A stretch of 64,000 bases of DNA from an uncultured Gemmatimonadales bacterium (GCA_963695555.1 CAVOGR010000007.1:320001-384000); one strand, 5' to 3'. Numbered from the stretch's first letter, positions 39,067 through 50,999 are shown. Translations and numbers: made by a program. The notes: generated by a model not told the origin, from the letters alone.

Positions 39067-40151
39067 GCGGGCCCCGGATCCGGTTCCAGCGTGTCCGGGG
39101 CTTCGCCAATGCCACGGAGTCCACGCTGGACCCAGTGCCACAGAACGAAGAACCCGAACGCGATCGTGAAGTAACTCAGAATGAGCCGCCAGATCATGGT
39201 GTAGAGCGGCGTCATGGCAACCGGCACATAGACCGACATGACCACGGCCGAGGTGAGTTCCGCCACACCCGATGCGCCGGGGGTAGGCACGAAGTACAGG
39301 AGAAACGTGATCAGCGTTTGCACCAGCAGCACATCAACAAATTGTGCCTCGATACCGACGGCGCGGAGCGCGACGTATCCGGCCAACAACTTGTTGGCAT
39401 GGGAGGGACCGGAAATAATCGTCGCCCACAGAAGCGCGAGCCACCCGCGCGGGGTATTGAATTTCTCGACGCTCTCGTGCGCGGTATCGATGCCGGCCTG
39501 GAGCTGGGCCAGCTTGTTGGCGACCCGCGTGCTGCGCCGACCGGCGAAGATGGCGAGGCGATGGATCAGATCCCGGACGATCCGCGGGAAGATGATGATG
39601 ATGACCAGCAGCACGCCGAGCCCGGCGAAGATCCCGAGGCTGCCGAGGAAGAGATCGTACAACGACAAGCCCAGCACATTGCCCTTCTCGCCGAGGGACT
39701 TCCCCGCCCCAGAGAGAATGGCGAGCGGGCCGGCAATCGCGAAGAATGCAACCGTGGCGATGAAGGTCATGAGCGTCGCGGCCATCGCGACGGGCACCGG
39801 CACGCCGTAGCGCCGCATGGTGTAGATCATGAGCGGTGCCGCGCCCGATTGCATCGGCGTGACGTAGGCGGCCCACGCACTCATCCCGCCGGCGAGCACC
39901 ATCCCCTTGAACGGCGGATCGGGATGCAGGACCCGTGTTACGACCCACAGCCGAAGCCCGCCTCCCAGCCAATCCATTGACGCGAGACCCAAGCCCACCA
40001 CGATCCACTCCCAGTGGATTCGGGTGAGGCTCTCCAGAAAGGCGGGGATGTTGTTGCCGTAGATGAGGACTGCGATGTACCCGATCAGCGAGATCAGAAC
40101 GAAGATCTGGAATCCCCGGACCAGGAGCTTGGGCGAGAGAACACGTGCCAT
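39063..40151 (-). CDS. Lysylphosphatidylglycerol synthase TM-domain (flippase-like) protein
   Basis: Multiple TM segments, TPMQSGAAP, PTPGASGVAE, WRLILSY. Confidence 0.85.
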   Translation of the reverse strand: MARVLSPKLLVRGFQIFVLISLIGYIAVLIYGNNIPAFLESLTRIHWEWIVVGLGLASMDWLGGGLRLWVVTRVLHPDPPFKGMVLAGGMSAWAAYVTPMQSGAAPLMIYTMRRYGVPVPVAMAATLMTFIATVAFFAIAGPLAILSGAGKSLGEKGNVLGLSLYDLFLGSLGIFAGLGVLLVIIIIFPRIVRDLIHRLAIFAGRRSTRVANKLAQLQAGIDTAHESVEKFNTPRGWLALLWATIISGPSHANKLLAGYVALRAVGIEAQFVDVLLVQTLITFLLYFVPTPGASGVAELTSAVVMSVYVPVAMTPLYTMIWRLILSYFTIAFGFFVLWHWVQRGLRGIGEAPDTLEPDPGPA

Positions 40152-40231
40152 GGGAGGTGGAAACGTATCGGTCCAGGGAGGCTTGCGGTAGGGTAGCTGC
40201 CCGCACCAACCCGCCGTGCTATTGTTCTTCC

Positions 40232-43063
40232 ATGGACGGCTCCGTCATTCGCATCGTGAATGCCACCCAGCACAACCTGAAAGGCATCACCGTCGACCTG
40301 CCGCATCGGCAGCTGATCGTCATTACCGGGCCGTCCGGCTCCGGCAAGAGCAGCCTCGCATTCGACACGCTCTATGCCGAAGGGCAGCGACGATACATCG
40401 AGTCGCTCTCGACCTACGCCAAACAATTCCTGGATCGCATGCCGAAGCCGGCGGTGGACCGGCTGGAGGGGCTGGCGCCCGCCGTCGCGATCGAGCAGCA
40501 CAACCCGACGGTGTCGAGCCGCTCGACCGTCGGGACAGCCACGGAAGTTTACGATTTCCTCCGGCTGCTCTGGGCCCGGATCGGGACGACCTACTGTCGC
40601 CAGTGCGACACCGCGGTGACCCAGGATACGCCCGAGTCGGCCGCCGCGGTCATCCAGGCTCGGGCCACGGGCAAGGTCCAGGTCACCTTTCCACTCCCCC
40701 CGAGCGCCCGGCCCAGTCACCAAGCTATCGTCGAGAACCTGGTGGCCCTGGGCTTCGTGCGTGCGGTCGCGGACGGTACCCCCATCGAGCTCGAGCGGTG
40801 CCCATCGGATCTCGACTTGACGGCAGTCACGGATCTCTTGGTTGTCGTGGACCGCCTCACCGTCGGGACTGCCGCGCGGGCCCGGCTCACCGAATCGATC
40901 GCGACCGCGTTCGCCGAGGGAGAAGGCGTCGCCGTCGTGCTCCACGACGATGCCAGGCTCCGCTTCACCGAGGCCCCGACGTGCAGCCGGTGCGACCTCG
41001 CCGCGAGCCCTATCACCCCGGCGCTCTTTTCCTTCAATAGCCCCCGCGGCGCCTGCGGCACCTGCAATGGATTCGGCGCGGTCCTCGAATACGACGAGAC
41101 CCTGATCGTGCCTGACCGGTCCCGCTCACTAGCCGATGGGGCGATCGACCCGTGGACCAAGCCGCGCTACGGCAGCCGGCGCCGCTTGCTGCTCACGACA
41201 GCCAAACAGCTTGGTGCCGATCCCGACCGTCCGTGGGCTTCGCTCAAGGCCGCCGCCCGCCGCCAGCTGCTCCACGGACGACAGGGACGCTACGTCGGAA
41301 TCTTTCCGTTCCTCAAAGACCTGGAGGTCAAGCGCTACAAGCAGTACATCCGCGTGTTTCTCCGACAGTATCAACTCGCGCGTGAATGTCCCAGCTGCCG
41401 GGGTGCGCGCCTCAACGAGGACGCGCTCGCCGTCAGGATCGGCCGGGACACCATCGCCGACGTGGCTGCCCGGTCCATTGACGGCATCGCCGAATGGCTC
41501 GTGGGCCTGGACCTGACGGACACGGAGCGCCAGGTGGCCCACCTGATCCTGCAGCAACTCGATGAACGGGTGAGCTTCCTGCGCGATGTGGGCCTCGGGT
41601 ATCTGACCCTGTCACGGCAGACGCGCACGCTGTCCGGCGGCGAAGCGCAACGCATCGGCCTCGCCAACGCCCTCGGCGCGCGTTTGGTCGATGCGCTGTA
41701 CGTGCTGGACGAGCCCTCGATCGGCCTCCATGCGCGCGACATCGACCGCCTGCTGGGCCTGTTGCGGCGGCTCAGGGATCACGGCAACACCGTGATCGTG
41801 GTGGAGCACGACCACACTGCCATTCAGCAGGCGGACTTCATGCTCGAGCTCGGTCCCGCCTCGGGCCAGCACGGCGGCGAAGTCGTCTACGCCGGCCCGC
41901 CCAGCGGTGCGACCGAGTCGCTCACCGGGCAATACCTGAGCGGGCGGAAGCGGATCGGAGTGCCGAGTGCCCGGCGGGTCGTCGGACCACAACGGTTGGA
42001 GGCGCGCGGGGCTCGGCTCCACAATCTCGACGGAATCGACGTCGACATTCCACTCGGCACGCTGACCGCAGTCACCGGGGTGTCGGGATCCGGCAAGAGT
42101 ACACTGGTCCACGACGTGTTGTATCGGAATCTCCAGGCCAAGATCCGGGGCGCACACTCGGCAAAGTCGCATCTGGGCGAGCCGGTGGGCGAGGTCGCAT
42201 CGCTCACGGGCTGGCAGCATCTCGACGATGTGCTTCTCATCGACCAATCTCCCATCGGACGCTCGCCCCGGTCCAACCCGATCACCTACATCCGAGCGTT
42301 CCAGGAGATCCGCGAGTTGTTCGCCGAGCAGCCGTTGGCGCGCGAGCGCGGATATTCGGCGTCGACATTCTCCTTCAATCTCCCGGAGGGGCGCTGCCCG
42401 GAGTGTGAAGGCGCGGGACACATCCGGGTGGAGATGGTGTTCCTGGCCGACGTGTTCGTGCCGTGCGACATGTGCGGCGGGGACCGCTTCAAGAAGGAAA
42501 TCCTCGACGTCACTATCCGAGGCTACTCCATTCGGGACGTGCTGCAGTGGACCGTGGACGAGGCCATCCCACGGTTCCATCACCAGCCGAAGCTCGGCGC
42601 GGCGCTCTGGCAGCTCCAACAAGTCGGCTTGGGGTACCTGACCCTGGGGCAGCCGGCGACGACGCTGTCCGGCGGCGAAGCCCAACGCCTCAAGATCGCG
42701 CGTGAGTTATTGCGGGCGAAGAAACAGGGCCGAACGCTCTACATCCTGGACGAACCGACGACGGGGCTCCATCTCGAGGACGTGCGCGTGTTGATCAAGG
42801 TGCTCGACCGACTGGTCGACGCCGGCCACACCGTGGTCGTAATCGAACATCATCTCGACGTCATCAAGCGGGCGGACTGGGTCATCGACCTGGGTCCCGA
42901 GGCCGGGCCGGGGGGCGGCAAGGTCGTGATTCAAGGTACGCCGGAGGATGTGGCCGTGGCGCCGGGCTCGCACACGGGTCGCTACTTGCACGCGGTGCTC
43001 CGCGAGCCCGAGGCTGGCCCGACTTCCGATGCTCCCCAGCGGACCATGTCCTCCGCTCGGTAG
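40232..43063 (+). CDS. uvrA: Excinuclease ABC subunit A
   Basis: GPSGSGKSSLAFDTLYAEGQRRY, two LSGGEAQR signatures, GVSGSGKSTL, zinc fingers. Confidence 0.95.
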   Translation: MDGSVIRIVNATQHNLKGITVDLPHRQLIVITGPSGSGKSSLAFDTLYAEGQRRYIESLSTYAKQFLDRMPKPAVDRLEGLAPAVAIEQHNPTVSSRSTVGTATEVYDFLRLLWARIGTTYCRQCDTAVTQDTPESAAAVIQARATGKVQVTFPLPPSARPSHQAIVENLVALGFVRAVADGTPIELERCPSDLDLTAVTDLLVVVDRLTVGTAARARLTESIATAFAEGEGVAVVLHDDARLRFTEAPTCSRCDLAASPITPALFSFNSPRGACGTCNGFGAVLEYDETLIVPDRSRSLADGAIDPWTKPRYGSRRRLLLTTAKQLGADPDRPWASLKAAARRQLLHGRQGRYVGIFPFLKDLEVKRYKQYIRVFLRQYQLARECPSCRGARLNEDALAVRIGRDTIADVAARSIDGIAEWLVGLDLTDTERQVAHLILQQLDERVSFLRDVGLGYLTLSRQTRTLSGGEAQRIGLANALGARLVDALYVLDEPSIGLHARDIDRLLGLLRRLRDHGNTVIVVEHDHTAIQQADFMLELGPASGQHGGEVVYAGPPSGATESLTGQYLSGRKRIGVPSARRVVGPQRLEARGARLHNLDGIDVDIPLGTLTAVTGVSGSGKSTLVHDVLYRNLQAKIRGAHSAKSHLGEPVGEVASLTGWQHLDDVLLIDQSPIGRSPRSNPITYIRAFQEIRELFAEQPLARERGYSASTFSFNLPEGRCPECEGAGHIRVEMVFLADVFVPCDMCGGDRFKKEILDVTIRGYSIRDVLQWTVDEAIPRFHHQPKLGAALWQLQQVGLGYLTLGQPATTLSGGEAQRLKIARELLRAKKQGRTLYILDEPTTGLHLEDVRVLIKVLDRLVDAGHTVVVIEHHLDVIKRADWVIDLGPEAGPGGGKVVIQGTPEDVAVAPGSHTGRYLHAVLREPEAGPTSDAPQRTMSSAR

Positions 43064-43090: not shown

Positions 43091-43122
43091 AAACGAGGCG
43101 GCCTGACCTGGCCGCCTCGTTT
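43091..43122. terminator. Bidirectional terminator between convergent uvrA and nirS
   Basis: Perfect 13-bp inverted repeat AAACGAGGCGGCC-TGACCT-GGCCGCCTCGTTT. Confidence 0.8.
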
Positions 43123-43156: not shown

Positions 43157-45127
43157 CTAGTAGATGTCCTCCGCCGTGTTGTGGACGTTGAACTTCCCGG
43201 TGGGCGTTACCAACCAGTCGCCCTTGATCCGTCGCTTTTCCTTCAGGGTCTTATCGTCATACACCACGATCTCGCCGGCCCGGTCCCAGACGGACACCCA
43301 CACCTCGGTCCCTGCCCGGTTGAATTCGAAGTGGGTCGCGGTGCCGTGATCGGCCACGGACCAGCAACGATCGACCACGCCCTTTTGCTTGGAGTAGACG
43401 CACACCTTGCGGGCGGCTTCGGGATCGTTGTTGAGCGGCATGTCGAACCACACCCACGGTGAGTTCGCGTGGGTCTTGAGGAACAGGCTGCCGGTGCCGT
43501 CAAGCGGAACCTGCCGCACCACCTTCCAGGCGTGCTCCGGGTGATTCGCGGGATCGGCGCCGTACACCGCCAGGAGGCCCTGGCCGATGTGCGTCGTGCC
43601 GTTGACCCAGCCGTACTCCGGATCCTGCCAGTTGGCGCCCCGGCCCGGGTGGGGTTTGATGCCGGTCTCGAAGGTGGTCACCAGCTTCTGCTCCTGGACG
43701 TCGATGACCGCCATCTTGTTTTCCATGTTGGCCGCGACCAGGAAATACCGACCGGTGTGGTCCCAGCCGCCGTCATGGAGGAACCGCTCGGCGGGAATGC
43801 GCGACACCACCGGAAAACCCTGCTTCGAGTAATCGACGATGGCCACGTGCCCCGATTCCTTGAGCGCCACGACCCACACCGGATCGGTATGGGACGCGAT
43901 GATGGCCGCCACCCGGACCTCCGCGAGCGGTTCATCGGTGCGGATCGCGTTCCCTTCGACACCGGTGACGGACAGCGGCTCGAGGGTCAGTCCATCGTAG
44001 ACAACGAATTGAGTCGGCCAATAGCAGCCTTCGATCAAGTACCGGTCCTCGTACCCCTTGTACTTGCTGCCTTCGACGCTCCGCGCATCGATGCACCCCT
44101 GCGCCTGGGCGACCAGCGAGGGCTCCTTGCTCCAGAGATCGATCAGCGTCACACGGCCATCGCGCCCGACCGCATAGAAATACCGGCCGGTGGACGAGGA
44201 GCGCAGGATGTGCACCGCGAAGCCGGTGTTGATCACCGACACCAGTTCGTAGGTGTCGCCGTCGAGGATGGCGACCTTTCCGGCGTCACGCAGGATCACG
44301 CCGAAGAAGTTCTCCCAGTTGCGCTTGGTCTGGGGTGAGGTTGGCCGGTCCTTGACCGGAATGCGCAGCTCCCAACTGTTCCGGATTTCCGACAGCGGCT
44401 TGGCCGGCGGCGCCGGCGGCTCGAGCTGCACGTACTTGGCCATCAGTTCGATTTCTTCGGCCGAGAGCACACCCGACAATCCCCAGGCAGGCATCCCGCC
44501 TGGCGTGCCGCTCGTGAGGATGGCCTTGAGCGCCGAGGTGCCAATCTGAGTGGTGCGCGCAGGCTGGATGTTCGGGCCGGTGGCCCCGGCGCGCAGCGTG
44601 CCGTGGCAGCCGGCGCAGCGGTCGAAGAAGATGCGTTGGCCCTGCTTGAACTCGGCCTCCGACAGCTCGACCGGGCCGGTATCCTCAACCTCACGGCCCT
44701 CAACTTCTCCCATGCTCACGAGCTGGATGTACTCCAGCACCTGACCGATCTCGTCGCGCGACAAATTTGGCGGAGACATCGGGACCTTCCATTCCGCCAA
44801 GAGGGCTTTGCCGATGGAATCGTCTTTCGCCATGCCGAGCGGGTCCTCCATCCAGCGGACCAGCCACTCGCCGGTTCGCCGCTCATGCACGTTCTTCAGG
44901 TCCGGTCCCACCCGAGGTCCTTCACCGATCGAGTGACAGGCGAAGCACGAACGGTCGAAGATGGCCTGGCCCGGGTGGGTCGAGGCGATCTTGCCCTCGG
45001 GGAGGACCAACGCCTGGTCCTGGGCTGCGCGATCCGACTTGCACCCTGACATGGAGACGAGCGCCGCGAGTGCGACGCACACCGAGACCGGCAGGAGCCT
45101 TGGGAAGTACCGTGTTCCAGCGTGCAT
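43157..45127 (-). CDS. nirS: Cytochrome cd1 nitrite reductase with an extra N-terminal cytochrome c domain and lipoprotein signal
   Basis: SD GGAGGT, lipobox MSGC (Cys29), CFACH, NirS-type CAGCHGTLRAGATG and GGMP, d1-domain motifs TGFAVHILR, FLHDGGWD, PHPGRGAN, SLFLKTH, TPTGKFNVHNT. Confidence 0.92.
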   Translation of the reverse strand: MHAGTRYFPRLLPVSVCVALAALVSMSGCKSDRAAQDQALVLPEGKIASTHPGQAIFDRSCFACHSIGEGPRVGPDLKNVHERRTGEWLVRWMEDPLGMAKDDSIGKALLAEWKVPMSPPNLSRDEIGQVLEYIQLVSMGEVEGREVEDTGPVELSEAEFKQGQRIFFDRCAGCHGTLRAGATGPNIQPARTTQIGTSALKAILTSGTPGGMPAWGLSGVLSAEEIELMAKYVQLEPPAPPAKPLSEIRNSWELRIPVKDRPTSPQTKRNWENFFGVILRDAGKVAILDGDTYELVSVINTGFAVHILRSSSTGRYFYAVGRDGRVTLIDLWSKEPSLVAQAQGCIDARSVEGSKYKGYEDRYLIEGCYWPTQFVVYDGLTLEPLSVTGVEGNAIRTDEPLAEVRVAAIIASHTDPVWVVALKESGHVAIVDYSKQGFPVVSRIPAERFLHDGGWDHTGRYFLVAANMENKMAVIDVQEQKLVTTFETGIKPHPGRGANWQDPEYGWVNGTTHIGQGLLAVYGADPANHPEHAWKVVRQVPLDGTGSLFLKTHANSPWVWFDMPLNNDPEAARKVCVYSKQKGVVDRCWSVADHGTATHFEFNRAGTEVWVSVWDRAGEIVVYDDKTLKEKRRIKGDWLVTPTGKFNVHNTAEDIY

Positions 45128-45180
45128 ATGTCGAACCTCCGAGGTGGTTGACCTCCCGCAGGAGGCCTGCGATGCAGTTC

Positions 45181-47337
45181 CTAGAAACCGAACGACCAGG
45201 CAAACGTGATGCTCCGCTTCGGCTCCGGCCGGAAGAACCCAACGTTGGGCGCTTCGGCGTAGAGCGTGTTGGTCAGATTGGTCACCGAGACGGCGAGTTG
45301 CTGACGGCCCAGCGACAACCCTCCATGCAGGCCGTGCACGGTAAATGACGGGATGACATCACCGACCGGGCTGGCTGCTAACTCGACGTCGTCGCGCCGT
45401 CCGTTGTGCCGAACGGCATACTCGACCCAGTATCGCCCATCCGGGCGGGCATAGCGCACCGTCGCGGTGAGTTTGCTCGAGTAGCCGTCGCCCAACGGCA
45501 CGTTCGGGTCGCCGACCGTCCGGGGGGACAAGTGGGAGTAGCCTGTCCCGAGCGTCACACGATCGCCCAATCGCACGGTCGCCGCCAACTCGATGCCGGT
45601 GATGCGCAGCTGGTCGATATTGATGTTCTGGAACTCGGTGACCCCGTTTACTTGATTGCCCGTCGGTGTGATCCGGATGGCGTCGTGCACCGTATTCCGG
45701 AAGACGAATCCCTCCACATACACCGGTCCGGATCGGAACCGCAGTCCGACTTCGGTGTTGAGGCTGGTTTCGGCATCGAGATCGAGGTTTCGTATCCAGA
45801 ACCCTCGGCCTTCCGGTGATGGACCGTTGAAGAAGCGCTCGACCAGATTGGGCGACCGGAAGGCGCGACCCACGGTAGCCACCACGCTCAGCTCAGCCGT
45901 CGCCCGGTAGAGCACGCTCGCCGAGCCCACCACGTTTCGATCGGTGTCGACGAACAGCGGATCGGTCAGACCCGGTGTCGTCCGTGTCGAGGCCCGCACG
46001 TCCTGGTACCGGCCGCCGACGATCAGGTCGGCCCGAGGGCTCAGGCTCACGGCCAGCTGAACGAAACCGCCGAGGCTCCGGAAGGTCGCGTCCGGGAGCC
46101 GCGGCGTGCCGCGGATGGTCGGACTCGGTGGCCCGGTCCCGAGGACCGTGGTGATGGTGGTGTCGGTGTTGCGCGAATTGTCTCGATAGAGATCGACCCC
46201 GTAGGTCACCAGATGGCGGCCGCCGACCAGCTTCTTGAACTCGGCGCGGAATCCGTAGGTCGCGATGTCCGTGAAGTTCCGGCTTTGGATGCTGACGCCG
46301 GCCCCGGCCGGGGCCGGCTGGGGGAAGGGCGAGAACACATTGGTATGGAACTCACGCTCGTTGTCTTGCAGGTATGCCGAGACCTCGAGACCGTCGAACG
46401 GCCCGACCCCAAGGTCGGCGCCTCGGTACCCGGCCGTGTAGCGCTCGAATCGTTGCGACGGGAAGAGCAGCTGAACCGTGGAGAGACCTGCCCCCAAGAC
46501 GCTGGGATCAACCAAGCCGAACCCCGCCTTCTCAGCCCGATAGCGATCGTACTTGGCAAAGACATCGTGTCGGGACGAGAGCCGATAGGCGACGGAGCCG
46601 CTCACGGAATAGTCTTCGACCCCGGTATCCTGGACCCGGGTGTTACCCGCCAGGGCCACGAGGCCGAACCGGCCGCCTGGCGCCTCGTACGGATCCGCCG
46701 TTCGATAGCTGCCGGTAAGGCGGAACGACACCGGGCCCGACCCGCCAAACAGGGTCGCGGCGGGCCGGCTCTGATTGTCGACCGTGCTGTACCGGTAGGA
46801 GACCTTCCCGTGAACCACCGTGCCGCGCGCCGCCAGGGGCGGGCCGCGGGTGATGAGGTTGATCACTCCCCCGATGGCGTCGGACCCATAGAGCACGGAG
46901 GACGCCCCCCGAACGATCTCGATCCGGTCCAGGGTGGATACGTCCACCAGCGCGGGGATCTCACCGGAGTCCTGGCGGCGACGCGAGTTGTTCAGCCTGA
47001 GCCCATCCTCCAACACGAGAATGCGCTGACCTTGGAGCCCGCGAATAATCGGTTGCCGCTGGGTGGTGCCAACACCGTCCAGGTCGAGGCCGGGCACCTC
47101 GAGGAAGAGATCCGCGGCACTATTGGGCTGCCGCTCGCGGAGGAGCGCCGAGTCCAACACCGTGACCGACATCGGCGTGTCGAACCCAAGGCGCGGGTCC
47201 CGGGTCGCCGTCACATTGAGATCGCGAACGCGGTAGGCCTCGTTGATGGTCTGCGCCGGGGCGAAGCCGGGAATTGCCAGAGTCAGCATGGCCAATACCA
47301 GCAACCAGCGTCCCAACGCCACCCGGCTCGGCCGCAT
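45181..47337 (-). CDS. TonB-dependent receptor, heme/hemoglobin-receptor-like; start may be 47388
   Basis: Signal peptide, TonB-box-like DLNVTATR, plug PIIRG and RIEIVRGASSVLYGSDAIGGVIN, FRSP...NLDL, C-terminal Phe. Confidence 0.9.
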   Translation of the reverse strand: MRPSRVALGRWLLVLAMLTLAIPGFAPAQTINEAYRVRDLNVTATRDPRLGFDTPMSVTVLDSALLRERQPNSAADLFLEVPGLDLDGVGTTQRQPIIRGLQGQRILVLEDGLRLNNSRRRQDSGEIPALVDVSTLDRIEIVRGASSVLYGSDAIGGVINLITRGPPLAARGTVVHGKVSYRYSTVDNQSRPAATLFGGSGPVSFRLTGSYRTADPYEAPGGRFGLVALAGNTRVQDTGVEDYSVSGSVAYRLSSRHDVFAKYDRYRAEKAGFGLVDPSVLGAGLSTVQLLFPSQRFERYTAGYRGADLGVGPFDGLEVSAYLQDNEREFHTNVFSPFPQPAPAGAGVSIQSRNFTDIATYGFRAEFKKLVGGRHLVTYGVDLYRDNSRNTDTTITTVLGTGPPSPTIRGTPRLPDATFRSLGGFVQLAVSLSPRADLIVGGRYQDVRASTRTTPGLTDPLFVDTDRNVVGSASVLYRATAELSVVATVGRAFRSPNLVERFFNGPSPEGRGFWIRNLDLDAETSLNTEVGLRFRSGPVYVEGFVFRNTVHDAIRITPTGNQVNGVTEFQNINIDQLRITGIELAATVRLGDRVTLGTGYSHLSPRTVGDPNVPLGDGYSSKLTATVRYARPDGRYWVEYAVRHNGRRDDVELAASPVGDVIPSFTVHGLHGGLSLGRQQLAVSVTNLTNTLYAEAPNVGFFRPEPKRSITFAWSFGF

Positions 47338-47388
47338 CGGAGTCGAGCGAGCCGAACTCGGCCCCGGCAGAGGGAATCCCGTCAACAC

Positions 47389-48582
47389 TCAGAAGGCCGC
47401 GTTCAGCATGATGTAGACCCACGTCATATTCTCGCCCAGCCGGCCGATCTCGCTGAAGGCGTCGGCGGCAAACACGTACGACAGCCCGCCGGTGAACGAC
47501 AGGTTGGGGCTGTAGCGGTAGCTGCTCGTGAGGTCGAGCTCTTCGCCCAGGTGTTTGGTGCTGAAGAGGCCCTGCTTGGCGAGGTGGAAGGAATGCAGGT
47601 CGGCCGCGAGGGTCAGGTCATCGCGTAGCGCGTACGATCCCTTGAGCGCGATGTCCTGCAGGCCGAGGCCGGCCGTGTGGGCCGGAATGTCGAGAAACAG
47701 GTCGGCGAAGCCGTAGAACTTGTGGTTGGTGGCGAACAGGGTGCTGAAGACCTTGGTCTTCCCATCGCCCGGATCGTCGTCGCCCGACAGATAGTCGTAC
47801 CAGGCGGTGACCTGCCCCTTCCCGTCGGCGAAGCGAGTGCCCGCGCGCGCACCCAGCATGAAGGCGGATACATCAACGCCGGCTCGATCGCCGGTTTGAA
47901 CGTAGAGCTCGCCGCGGTAGATGACGCCTGACCTTTCCCCGGCCAGTCGCGCCCCGAGGGTGCCTTGGTTGGTGTTGGCCAGCGTGGCCTCGACGTGGTC
48001 ATAGAGAGCGTAGAGCTCGAGCGTCCCGCCCGCGACGTTCTTGACCTCGCCGATGGCACCGATGAATGCCCCGTCATTCGGCACCGCCGGCGAGGTTGCA
48101 TCGGACAGCTGGTACCCGAATACCGTCACCCCGCCCCACCCGCTGCCGCCATAGAGGCGGACGCCGTCGAACGCGCGGCCCTGCTGGGTCCAATCGACCG
48201 CCCCGATGAGGCGCTGGCCGCCCGCGTTCATCTCTTGCCGCCCGACTCGCACCATGCGGTGCTTGTCTTTGCTGGCGAGCTCGATGAAGCCTTGATGGAG
48301 ATCGAAGTTGTCCGCCTCGAAATCGGCGAGCGTGCTCGACTCTTCGCCCCAGATTCGTACATCTTGCAACTCGACGAACACCCGGACATCGCGCTTCAGC
48401 GTGGCGTCGACGTGCGCGCGAACCCGCATGGACGTAAAGGCGTCGTCGTCACCACCCACTGGCTCTCGATACTCGGTGCGCGGACGTACTTGCGCGCCGA
48501 AGGTGGCCTCTTGAGCGACGGCGACGCTCGTGAGGCACATGGTGCAGGTCAGCGACAGGGCGAGGACGGGCTGGACTCTCAT
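47389..48582 (-). CDS. Alginate-export-family outer-membrane beta-barrel channel
   Basis: SD GAGGA, signal peptide, RPRTEYR, QDVRIWG, VGRQE..RLIG..DW.QQGRAFD, YDYLSGD, ATNHKFYGFADLF, C-terminal Phe. Confidence 0.85.
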   Translation of the reverse strand: MRVQPVLALSLTCTMCLTSVAVAQEATFGAQVRPRTEYREPVGGDDDAFTSMRVRAHVDATLKRDVRVFVELQDVRIWGEESSTLADFEADNFDLHQGFIELASKDKHRMVRVGRQEMNAGGQRLIGAVDWTQQGRAFDGVRLYGGSGWGGVTVFGYQLSDATSPAVPNDGAFIGAIGEVKNVAGGTLELYALYDHVEATLANTNQGTLGARLAGERSGVIYRGELYVQTGDRAGVDVSAFMLGARAGTRFADGKGQVTAWYDYLSGDDDPGDGKTKVFSTLFATNHKFYGFADLFLDIPAHTAGLGLQDIALKGSYALRDDLTLAADLHSFHLAKQGLFSTKHLGEELDLTSSYRYSPNLSFTGGLSYVFAADAFSEIGRLGENMTWVYIMLNAAF

Positions 48583-48617
48583 GGCAATCCTCGAAATGGA
48601 GGCGTCGGCTCCACGGG

Positions 48618-48659
48618 AAAGTACCGCCAAATTCTAAATCGGACAAGTTTGTCATATTT
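48618..48659 (-). promoter_or_regulatory. Promoter and palindromic operator of the porin-TonB-nirS operon
   Basis: Minus strand TTGTCC-N17-TACTTT. Palindrome AAAT-N2-GACAA-N2-TTGTC-N2-ATTT at 48636-48659 overlaps the -35 element. Confidence 0.6.
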
Positions 48660-48761
48660 TGACCGGCCGTGAGTAAATCTTTCGTTAAATGACTAGGAAA
48701 GATCCTTCACGATTGACTCGAATGCCGAGTTGGCTTGTGCTGGACCCTGCGAACCACCGGG

Positions 48762-50801
48762 CTACGTGAGCAGCTGCTTCGCCTCTTCGATGGCGTGCTC
48801 CGCCCCGCTCAAGGCGAGCAGGTCACCCTCGAGGAGCGTCTCGGTGGCCTTGGGGAACACGATCCGGTCCTCGCCCCGGCAGAGCGCCACCACGGTGGCG
48901 CCCGTCATCCCACGGACATTCAACTGGGCCAGTGACTTCCCGGCCGCGGGACTCCCGGCACGGATGGTGAGTGGCGTCAAGCTGCCGAGTTCCGGCGCCA
49001 GCCGGCGTACCTCATCGAGGGCGGACGGACGCTCGCCGCTGACCTGGCGGGCCAGGGCGTGGACCACCATGCCGGCGGTGGCGCGCACGTGACCCTCGAG
49101 GTTCCGGGCCGACTGCCAGAACGCCGCCCCGAACAGCACGAGCGCGACGACCAGGACGGCGAGGCCGCCATAGGTCGGCAAGAAGGGCTGGGTAACCGCG
49201 ACCAGCGGGGCACCGACCAGGAGGATGATGAAGATCTCGAGCGTCACCAAGAGCGCCCGCCGCGGGGCGAGCCCCAGGTCCACCTTCCCTCGCTCCACCA
49301 TGGGGAAGGCGCTCGTGGCCAGAGTATGCGCCAGCGACCGGGACGACCGTACCAATCCGATGAGAAAGGGAAAGGCGAGTGCCAGGGCGGCGGCAACAAC
49401 GACGAGACGACCGATCACGACACCCATGGCAAGTGACCGGGCGAGGATCGGTAGAACGTGCGGCAGCGCCACGGACGTGCCGGCGATAATGCCGGCAATG
49501 ATGGTGGCGTCGATCAAGATGTACCCGGTCAGACGCCGGATGCGGCCCCGAGGCGTGGTGCTCCGGGGGGCATTCCGCAGGGCCTCGACCCACGAGCCGT
49601 ACAGGGTAGCGTAGGTCTGGAGTGGCTTGGGCAGCCGGCGGTCGACATAGGCGCCCGCCCTATCGGAGAAGGCAATCATCCACGGCGAGCCGAACGCGGT
49701 GAGCACCGAGACGGCCACTGCCACCGGATAGAGGAATTCGCTCGTGGCGCCACTCACGGCGCCCACCCCGGCGATGATGAATGAGAACTCGCCGATCTGA
49801 GTCAGTGTCATGCTGGTGCGGACGGAGGTCCTGGTGTCGAACCCGGCGAGGAATGCGCCGACGCTCACGCCGAGGATCTTTCCGGTCATTACTACACCGG
49901 TGAGCAGCACGACCGCGCCCCAGTTCTCGAAGATCAACCGCTGATCGATGAGCATGCCGACGGCAACGAAGAAGATGGCGGCAAACATGTCCCGCACCGG
50001 CCGGATCAATTCTGCCACCGGCCGGGACGAGCCGGACTCGGCGACGAGCGAGCCCGCGAGGAAGGCGCCGAGTGCCACGGAAAATCCAGCCGCACTCGCG
50101 AGGAGCGCGACGGCGAAGCAGAGCCCGACGCTTGCCACCAGCGTGGTTTCCGGTTTTCGAAGTCGCACGATGGCGCGCATCGCGCGTGGCACGACAAGAA
50201 TGCCCACCACCAGGAGTCCCACCAAGAACGCAACCAGGCTGCCGAGGGTGGTGGCAAGCGTGCCGGTCGAGAGCCCCGCCCCGGTCGCGACCGCGGTGAG
50301 AATCGCGATGAGGAGAATCGCCGCCAGATCCTCGACGATCAGAATGCCGAACACCAGGTCCGAATGGGAGCGCGGAACCTCGCGCTCGGCGAATACCTTG
50401 GCGATGATCATGGTACTCGAAATGGCCACGATGGCGCCGGCGAAGATGCTATCGACCGTACCCCAGCCTAGCAGCTGGCCTGCCAAATACCCCAGGGAGA
50501 GCATGAGCCCGACTTCGATCACGCCGACCAAGCCGGCCGTCGGGGCGAGCCGTGCCAACTTGTGGAGGTTGAAGTCGAGCCCGAGCGAGAACATGAGGAG
50601 GATGACCCCGAGCTCCGCCAGGGTCCGGATGCTCTGGGGATCGCCGACCAGCGTGGTGGGCGAATGCGGCCCGATGACTAGACCGGCCAGCAGGTAGCCC
50701 AGGACCACCGGCAGCTTGAGCCGGTGGAACACCACCGTAATGATGGCGGCCACGCCGAGGACTGCGGTGAGATCGCCGAGAAAAGCCGGCAGGTGTTCCA
50801 T
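48762..50801 (-). CDS. CPA2 cation:proton antiporter with C-terminal TrkA-C/RCK_C domain
   Basis: LPVVLGYLLAG, ELGVILLMFSLGL, ISSTMII, LIVED, LGAFLAG, QIGEFSFI, GSPAAGKSL. Confidence 0.92.
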   Translation of the reverse strand: MEHLPAFLGDLTAVLGVAAIITVVFHRLKLPVVLGYLLAGLVIGPHSPTTLVGDPQSIRTLAELGVILLMFSLGLDFNLHKLARLAPTAGLVGVIEVGLMLSLGYLAGQLLGWGTVDSIFAGAIVAISSTMIIAKVFAEREVPRSHSDLVFGILIVEDLAAILLIAILTAVATGAGLSTGTLATTLGSLVAFLVGLLVVGILVVPRAMRAIVRLRKPETTLVASVGLCFAVALLASAAGFSVALGAFLAGSLVAESGSSRPVAELIRPVRDMFAAIFFVAVGMLIDQRLIFENWGAVVLLTGVVMTGKILGVSVGAFLAGFDTRTSVRTSMTLTQIGEFSFIIAGVGAVSGATSEFLYPVAVAVSVLTAFGSPWMIAFSDRAGAYVDRRLPKPLQTYATLYGSWVEALRNAPRSTTPRGRIRRLTGYILIDATIIAGIIAGTSVALPHVLPILARSLAMGVVIGRLVVVAAALALAFPFLIGLVRSSRSLAHTLATSAFPMVERGKVDLGLAPRRALLVTLEIFIILLVGAPLVAVTQPFLPTYGGLAVLVVALVLFGAAFWQSARNLEGHVRATAGMVVHALARQVSGERPSALDEVRRLAPELGSLTPLTIRAGSPAAGKSLAQLNVRGMTGATVVALCRGEDRIVFPKATETLLEGDLLALSGAEHAIEEAKQLLT

Positions 50802-50999
50802 ATGATCCGTGAGCGAGAGAAAGGGGGCGCGTGGCCGACTCACCTGGGATCAAGATACCGGCATGGTTGCCGCGGCCGAAACCCGGTGAGGGCCCACCGT
50901 TCGGCGGTTGAGCGGGTCGGCGGTTCGGCGAAGGGTAGCGTGGTCCTTCTCGCAGCGGAATCACCTTCGTCATCGATCCGCCGAACCGCCCAGCCGCCG

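Follow-up and report, generated by a model that had tools for sequence, protein, structure and literature searches.

In the classical denitrifiers Pseudomonas and Paracoccus, the gene for cytochrome cd1 nitrite reductase (nirS) lies in a nir cluster together with nirE, nirDLGH, nirJ, nirF, nirC, and nirN. The locus considered here is arranged differently. It lies in a stretch of 64,000 nt (“the window” in what follows; G000:C7:320001-384000, contig CAVOGR010000007.1) of a Gemmatimonadales metagenome-assembled genome (MAG; GCA_963695555.1, here G000; 3.57 Mb in 14 contigs, 87.1% complete, 0.08% contamination), and consists of three co-oriented minus-strand genes, for a porin, a TonB-dependent receptor, and NirS, with uvrA on one side and a CPA2 gene on the other. 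Its NirS is like the classical enzyme in fold, motifs, and periplasmic location, but carries a lipobox and, at its N-terminus, one more cytochrome c domain; the genome has no haem d1 genes, and the neighbours of nirS are a receptor and a porin rather than biosynthesis genes. The reading developed below, which we consider about evenly poised, is that the receptor may import finished haem d1 for use by NirS; which ligand the receptor carries, how it would pass to NirS, and what the porin does are inferences.

Several outer-membrane transporters invite comparison with the receptor. PhuR, ShuA/ChuA, HemR, and HasR share its plug-plus-barrel architecture, and PhuR is its best full-length match. Haem receptors have a conserved His at the plug apex and another between the FRAP and NPNL boxes. 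The window receptor, in contrast, has an Arg-rich apex with no His at either place, scores below the cut-offs of the curated haem-receptor models TIGR01785 and TIGR01786, and is encoded with nirS rather than with haem-utilisation genes, its proposed ligand being d1. Salvage of cobalamin by B12 auxotrophs, which use a dedicated TonB-dependent receptor of the BtuB type to obtain from the community a modified tetrapyrrole that is costly to make, follows the same logic as the import proposed here, but the receptor families differ: the window receptor scores 107 bits to the BtuB model TIGR01779 (cut-off 600), the match being limited to the plug region. Because d1 is used in the periplasm, no inner-membrane step would be needed, unlike in cobalamin salvage. 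Finally, the NosA/OprC copper receptor serves N2O reductase, and is thus also an outer-membrane TonB-dependent transporter supplying the cofactor of a periplasmic denitrification enzyme. NirS, however, holds no copper, and the window receptor reaches just 46.8 bits to the corresponding TonB-copper model (TIGR01778, cut-off 472).

A full-text literature search found no paper proposing d1 uptake or a receptor-nirS pair. One survey tells NirS clades apart partly by whether nirBEFJNT genes are present (Pold et al., 2024, PMC10999283); Table S3 of that survey may already list the present clade as lacking them.

NirS and the absent haem d1 pathway

The nirS gene (43157-45127, minus strand, as are all features of the three genes) encodes a protein of 656 aa with a Cytochrom_D1 domain (PF02239, 364 bits) and two cytochrome c domains, whose closest relatives are in other Gemmatimonadales MAGs. 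Residues 145-656 align end to end with the solved NirS structures of P. aeruginosa (524 bits) and Paracoccus (514 bits). Each c domain has a CxxCH motif for haem c: CFACH (residues 61-65, 44933-44947), with C61, C64, and H65 invariant across 20 relatives, in the extra N-terminal domain, and CAGCH (residues 171-175, 44603-44617) in the canonical NirS c domain. His306 (44210-44212), in the sequence AVHIL, is aligned to AVHIS of the P. aeruginosa protein, a segment that we take to hold the proximal d1 ligand. The two distal active-site His residues are His451 in FLHDGGWD (43775-43777) and His493 in PHPGRGAN (43649-43651). All three motifs (AVH, LHDGG, and PHPGRG) match those of P. aeruginosa NirS and are invariant across the same 20 relatives, as are the conserved Arg residues of the solved enzymes; H306, H451, and H493 presumably keep their ligand and catalytic roles. 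A first-pass annotation of the window, made from the sequence alone, had credited this NirS with the d1-ligand His and both catalytic His motifs, and the alignment agrees. The protein has an LxGC lipobox at Cys29 (45041-45043), with Lys as the next residue; Cys29 is nearly invariant in the 20 relatives, and the lipobox is common to the whole clade of NirS proteins with two c domains, which are therefore probably membrane-anchored. The ratio of nonsynonymous to synonymous substitution rates (dN/dS) is 0.064 against the orthologue in G004 and 0.154 against that in G017, indicating purifying selection in genomes without d1 genes: NirS is genuine and under selection. Two-cytochrome NirS has been termed unique to Chloroflexi (Schwartz et al., 2022, PMC8756737).

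Other arrangements of multi-cytochrome NirS were also seen. At one locus (L196, 9257-11800) an 847-aa NirS with additional cytochrome c domains is encoded downstream of Rieske and cytochrome b-like genes, an arrangement resembling a fused or operonic chain that supplies NirS with electrons. In another lineage (L191, L194, and L199), a stand-alone two-c-domain nirS is adjoined by a divergent Rrf2-family regulator gene, whose product we take to resemble NsrR; L194 also has narI- and narH-like genes beside the Rrf2/nirS pair.

The first-pass annotation recognised no d1 genes in the 64 kb, and none emerged from a scan of the 42 other open reading frames (ORFs) of the window, which are of housekeeping type with no tetrapyrrole or nitrogen-cycle genes among them. 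The same holds for a search of the whole genome, which had been named as a check. In G000, nirS is the only strong d1-domain gene; the best score to NirJ is 50 bits (cut-off 515), and there is no siroheme-decarboxylase domain of the NirDLGH type (PF17805), no NirF or NirN, and no uroporphyrinogen-III methyltransferase (SUMT), an enzyme that the same search found in 13 of 14 control genomes. Among 401 evenly sampled Gemmatimonadota genomes, 10 have a d1 domain (E ≤ 1e-20), with one such gene each (that of the sister genome G002 in two pieces); G004 was added as an eleventh NirS-bearing genome, also with a single d1-domain gene. SUMT and PF17805 are absent from all 11 (87-98% complete), and none has a NirJ above the cut-off, the best match being a radical SAM/SPASM protein of G017 at 181 bits. 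The d1 pathway is thus missing from G000 and from its ten NirS-bearing relatives alike. As a control, metagenome contigs were taken that encode a NirS with only one c domain, as in the classical enzyme: a second d1-domain gene lies beside nirS in eight of these, and the three that were annotated have AhbA/B-type decarboxylase subunits, NirJ (452 and 473 bits), and SUMT (310 bits) near nirS.

A 359-aa YVTN propeller protein of G000 (C1:710688-711767; L002 829-1908) with weak PF02239 hits was considered as a NirF and rejected. Among solved proteins it comes closest to an S-layer YVTN protein (82 bits), and NirF matches it at just 34 bits, over 78 residues. Another of its nearest relatives of solved structure is the beta subunit of hydrazine synthase; similar ORFs occur in G002 and G004.

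The deficit in G000 extends beyond d1. ALAD, URO-D, and ferrochelatase were not found in this genome either, and with SUMT also missing no tetrapyrrole synthesis is to be expected: by these four markers G000 looks like a total tetrapyrrole auxotroph. It nevertheless encodes an aa3-type oxidase and two more haem-copper oxidases. The catalytic subunits of the latter (C12:70213-71565 and C2:88925-90286) are divergent, at 312 and 212 bits to COX1; they are claimed by no curated family and are not assignable to NO reductase, although one of them could be such an enzyme. The sister genome G002 (98% complete, 10 contigs) is likewise without ALAD and SUMT. Across the phylum sample, no ALAD was found in 136 of the 401 genomes (mostly at least 90% complete), which cluster by genus, nor in 8 of the 10 with NirS. 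The other two NirS genomes of the sample, G349 and G297, are haem b prototrophs by their markers, with ALAD, URO-D (339 and 409 bits, respectively), and ferrochelatase (265 and 353 bits), but are also without SUMT, NirJ, the decarboxylase, and NirF/N. No mention of widespread tetrapyrrole auxotrophy in Gemmatimonadota was found in the portions of the literature examined.

The nirS-linked receptor

The receptor gene (45181-47388) encodes 735 aa of a PhuR-like family (Plug 85 bits, TonB barrel 138 bits), made up of a plug and a 22-strand barrel, with Met18 (about 47337) as the likely start. Nine of the 11 NirS-bearing genomes, representing five of their seven genera and four gene orders, have a member of this family no more than 10 kb from nirS. 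The order is porin-receptor-nirS in G000 and G002, nirS-porin-receptor in G401, and nirS-receptor in G349; G017, G170, and G195 have a convergent receptor beside nirS, G224 has nirS-porin with a convergent receptor, and in G004 the receptor is near nirS at a contig end. It is also found beside nirS on six of six metagenome contigs (L171-L175, L179) encoding a two-c-domain NirS 71-75% identical to that of the window; two others (L177, L203) were left out of this count as too short to tell. A scan of species genomes with a profile of the receptor gave 80 loci, five of them with nirS (L092, L093, L094, L104, and L142, where L093 repeats G170).

The family as a whole is wider than this association, occurring (E ≤ 1e-60) in 74 of the 401 genomes, most of which have no nirS. 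Its nirS-linked members form a group of their own. In an IQ-TREE phylogeny of 51 receptors, the eight linked ones make up one clade, with a support of 100 in the Shimodaira-Hasegawa-like approximate likelihood ratio test (SH-aLRT). A FastTree of 121 receptor rows, from which the long-branch sequences of G165, G406, G277, and G178 and hits shorter than 600 aa or containing stops were left out, has a corresponding clade of 18 rows (support 99): 17 adjoin nirS, the eighteenth (L091) is from a 3.7-kb contig with a porin and a receptor that ends before nirS could appear, and none of the other 101 receptors falls inside. As to whether such a receptor clade accompanies nirS specifically in genomes without d1 synthesis, another check proposed at the outset, the clade was seen only beside nirS.

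Two lines of comparison place the window receptor nearest to PhuR among solved structures. A profile of the linked clade, searched against the PDB, finds PhuR (8the) first and over its full length (E 5e-40), with CirA and ShuA giving chiefly plug matches. An AlphaFold model based on a 57-sequence alignment (predicted local distance difference test, pLDDT, 84.2; predicted template modelling score, pTM, 0.85) likewise has PhuR as its first Foldseek match (E 5.6e-41, template modelling score 0.76), followed by OprC and then by ChuA/ShuA. The first-pass annotation had called for the receptor to be placed among haem and B12 types, and by both profile and fold it goes with a haem receptor. In the place of the FRAP and NPNL boxes it has FRSP and NLDL/NPDL-like boxes. 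The apex His of PhuR sits in an insertion that the window receptor does not have.

The linked receptors have a sister clade, called here the general clade, which is enriched in genomes without ALAD. G000 has a paralogue of this kind as well (C1:364239-366287; L051 9219-11417, minus strand), 52% identical to the linked receptor, and the same pairing of a linked and a general copy is found in seven NirS genomes (G000, G002, G017, G170, G195, G224, and G401), so that the nirS-linked receptor in these is an extra copy. The general-clade gene belongs to a cassette, present at 29-31 of the loci L091-L170, that encodes a GAF/HisKA_3 histidine kinase, a LuxR-type response regulator, the receptor, and a multi-pass membrane ORF of about 241 aa with no Pfam family. 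No haem-utilisation genes were seen beside the general-clade receptor, so that its context does not name its ligand.

By hand tabulation, the receptor family occurs in 56 of 136 genomes without ALAD and in 18 of 265 with it. Taken by taxonomic family, the corresponding figures are 42 of 69 and 7 of 98 (f1), 8 of 22 and 5 of 71 (f2), 4 of 4 and 0 of 26 (f6), and 2 of 32 and 4 of 38 (f7). Four genomes flagged as unpublished (G121, G083, G201, and G176) entered these tallies only as ALAD-bearing and receptor-less. Kinship among the genomes notwithstanding, the pattern fits a haem-import family, and the general-clade cassette is a candidate for the system by which haem auxotrophs take up haem.

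A second kind of receptor is associated with NirS elsewhere. At the metagenome loci L176 and L182 (and, in part, L178), a different receptor gene lies about 30 nt upstream of a two-c-domain nirS whose product is 62-64% identical to that of the window. This receptor is just 22-23% identical to the window's; it passes the TIGR01785/6 cut-offs at 354-384 bits and has both the plug His and the FRAP-His-NPDL pattern. Such a pairing of a canonical haem receptor with nirS was seen only at these three loci. As judged by gene order and family models, then, two unlike TonB-dependent receptors, one of them of textbook haem type, are each coupled to two-c-domain NirS.

What the receptor may import

These observations suggest a self-contained outer-membrane and periplasmic module for nitrite reduction in an organism unable to make tetrapyrroles. 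NirS would be exported, lipid-anchored, and supplied with two c haems, but its catalytic haem d1 would not be made by the cell. Instead, the dedicated receptor whose gene adjoins nirS would capture finished d1 released by other denitrifiers and pump it into the periplasm, where it would bind to apo-NirS; the porin would be a separate part of the module, for nitrite entry or NO exit. According to one source, d1 is completed and inserted into NirS in the periplasm (PMC13168839), so that crossing the outer membrane would suffice. The first-pass annotation had allowed for import of either d1 or a precursor. The second option does not survive, since NirF and NirN are absent and a precursor would not do. 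Each genomic check that the annotation had named turned out in favour of its interpretation, which, taken as a whole, is partly supported.

A number of results weigh against import of d1. The curated haem-receptor models, although the best NCBIfam matches of the window receptor, give 228 bits (TIGR01786) and 217 bits (TIGR01785) against cut-offs of 323.75 and 316.85. Its Arg-rich plug apex contains no His, nor does the stretch from its FRSP box to its NPDL-like box, and the OprC copper transporters are the second-best group by fold. The linked clade and its sister clade differ consistently at only six sites, chiefly W531 in place of Q; clade-specific residues were considered as evidence on the ligand, but so few differences are not decisive. 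Two genomes with NirS and no d1 genes (G250 and G297) have no receptor of the family within 10 kb of nirS, and neither a clade receptor nor a canonical haem receptor. On seven contigs from other lineages with a two-c-domain NirS, no receptor was found within 6 kb; the neighbours are housekeeping genes, with an Rrf2 gene on three. The enrichment of the family in ALAD-less genomes overstates the case, since kin genomes are not independent. G000 is only 87.1% complete, although the absence of ALAD and SUMT recurs in its 98% complete sister. Lastly, the scheme presupposes that free d1 is present, and survives, in estuarine sediment.

One further difficulty is that G000 does not make haem b either, which makes a second haem b receptor a live alternative. 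The linked receptor would then be an importer of haem b or haemoproteins co-expressed with NirS, whose d1 would come by some other route or which would be only partly loaded. This would suit the lack of ALAD, URO-D, and ferrochelatase in G000 and of ALAD in most other NirS genomes, the enrichment just discussed, the sharing of most conserved residues by the two receptor clades, and the need of each NirS chain for two c haems. It leaves the source of d1 unexplained, however; the clade is never seen away from nirS, and seven genomes already have a general-clade copy to which the linked one is an addition. G349 is the most telling case: it makes haem b and lacks d1 genes, yet keeps a clade receptor beside nirS as its sole member of the family, which argues against a plain haem b role. 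We regard this alternative as unlikely, though by no means negligible. Import of something other than a tetrapyrrole, such as a metal complex or a siderophore, with the link to nirS a mere result of joint acquisition on an island, would account for the unmet haem-receptor cut-offs, the lack of His ligands, the rank of OprC in the fold comparison, and the patchy occurrence of nirS in the phylum (10 of 401 genomes), as expected of a transferred island. A frozen island, though, is not what the gene orders suggest: adjacency persists through four orders and orientations in five of seven genera, and therefore points to selection for linkage. The score to the copper-receptor model (47 bits against 472) and the pairing of an unrelated canonical haem receptor with the same type of NirS elsewhere also count against an unrelated ligand, which we think improbable.

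The remaining explanations concern NirS itself and the search for its cofactor genes. NirS of this clade might need no d1, having ordinary haem in its propeller or serving in another role, as an electron carrier or an NO or hydroxylamine enzyme. In favour of this, none of the annotated contigs from the whole two-c-domain clade had d1 genes close to nirS, and two genomes are without any candidate receptor. Against it, the segments in which solved NirS has its d1 ligand, its active-site His pair, and conserved Arg residues are invariant; haem b is also beyond the means of 8 of the 10 genomes, and a dedicated receptor clade would go unexplained. We think this, too, improbable. Alternatively, d1 genes might exist and have been missed, in unassembled regions or as an unknown pathway. 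The incompleteness of G000, the fact that most of the genomes are MAGs, the 181-bit radical SAM/SPASM protein of G017, and the 359-aa propeller of G000 with its weak PF02239 hits could be cited in support. Against this, at least five gene families would have to have been lost from view in 11 of 11 genomes that are 87-98% complete; real NirJ proteins score 452-473 bits; and the propeller is closer to an S-layer protein than to NirF. With SUMT missing throughout and ALAD missing in most, moreover, there is no isobacteriochlorin by any known route. This we consider very improbable.

Import of finished d1, if correct, can be put in more general terms. Haem d1 may be a traded public good: a nirS guild, comprising Gemmatimonadota and at least one other lineage, would run on d1 made by others, imported by dedicated TonB-dependent receptors with two or more separate origins, and many of its members would make no tetrapyrrole at all. 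This wider proposal is a tentative one, which we place a little short of an even chance.

The porin, the flanking sequences, and wider implications

The porin (47389-48585) is of the Alginate_exp (AlgE-like) outer-membrane type (PF13372, 120 bits, profile positions 3-381 of 395). Its ORF extends from 47389 to 48630, or 413 aa when read from a TTG. Translation probably begins instead at an ATG (48585), so that the protein has a signal peptide; its last residue is Phe. No alginate or polysaccharide export genes were found near it in the window, and by tblastn it is single-copy in G000. Orthologues adjoin nirS in G002, G224, G401, and G297, but 45 of the 401 genomes have a porin of this family, and close orthologues occur also where there is no nirS. 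A part in cofactor uptake was considered for it and dropped, the family not being specific to nirS genomes. Eight porin loci from nirS-less genomes were examined. In three (G074, G117, and G372; L260, L261, and L259, respectively) the porin gene is directly beside one for a copper nitrite reductase, NirK, at 356, 349, and 377 bits to TIGR02376 (cut-off 296); the other five have no nitrogen-cycle gene. Since it accompanies nitrite reductases of both kinds, the porin is better read as a channel for substrate or product than as a route for cofactor, and it most likely lets nitrite in or NO out. The idea that the channel admits nitrite was part of the first-pass annotation, and adjacency to NirK in other genomes is consistent with it.

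Two of the three porin-linked NirK proteins end in a cytochrome c domain, and one of the three, of 734 aa, has a long N-terminal extension. Other genes were seen near nirS in the two haem b prototrophs. In G297 (L049 12021-15481), nirS and the porin are followed by a molybdopterin oxidoreductase and its Fe-S subunit; in G349 (L050 11605-15060), nirS has beside it a gene for an 1151-aa protein in which a molybdopterin oxidoreductase is fused to a class V aminotransferase, as well as a hemerythrin gene.

The layout of the window locus is as it had been described before this analysis, with three co-oriented and closely spaced genes between uvrA (40145-43063, plus strand, 1100 bits to the UvrA model) and the CPA2/TrkA-C transporter gene (48762-50843, minus strand, from the ORF call and a domain search), and the observation is confirmed at the gene level. 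The spacing between nirS and the receptor is 53 nt; the stop of the porin gene abuts the receptor start as listed, or is about 50 nt from it if the receptor begins at Met18. A single AT-rich promoter and a single terminator had also been proposed, and here the result is mixed. An AT-rich intergenic leader upstream of the porin (48586-48761, minus strand), a candidate promoter region, and a GC-rich terminator-like hairpin with a 13-bp stem and a 6-nt loop between the convergent nirS and uvrA (43091-43122, minus strand) can both be read directly from the sequence. A scan for consensus promoters and terminators reported neither, however, and found no excess over shuffled sequences (1 against a mean of 1.0, and 4 against 3.4, respectively); the hairpin fails the T-run rule of the terminator scanner. 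The leader also contains a short palindrome near 48650 (about 48640-48660; two 5-bp arms with a 2-bp spacer), possibly a regulator site. An FNR/DNR-type box was sought by eye in the leader and not found; the palindrome does not match its consensus.

RNA-library contigs from estuary samples, belonging to a relative about 92% identical, span all three genes and bridge both junctions (with extents over the locus of 44043-45700, 45672-47537, and 47591 onward). Carry-over of DNA into these libraries is possible, and they give a weak hint that the locus is expressed. In the sister genome G002 (L026, G002:C3), nirS, the receptor gene, and uvrA are each broken by frame changes, with synteny intact; because the housekeeping gene uvrA is affected too, these look like assembly indel errors rather than decay.

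The gene nirS is a standard marker for denitrifiers, and synthesis of d1 has so far been treated as part of the trait. If d1 is indeed imported by the organisms described here, gene surveys would misjudge which organisms reduce nitrite unaided, sediment counts of nirS would take in organisms that are active only by grace of their neighbours, and part of the output of NO and N2O would depend on community make-up. The comparison has also brought to light a porin found alongside nitrite reductases of either kind. Environmental haem auxotrophs often have no known haem receptors, as stated in one report (PMC11139205), and the receptor family is a concrete candidate for the missing ones. Should its nirS-linked branch prove to carry d1, this cofactor would join B12 and haem as a tetrapyrrole exchanged between organisms.

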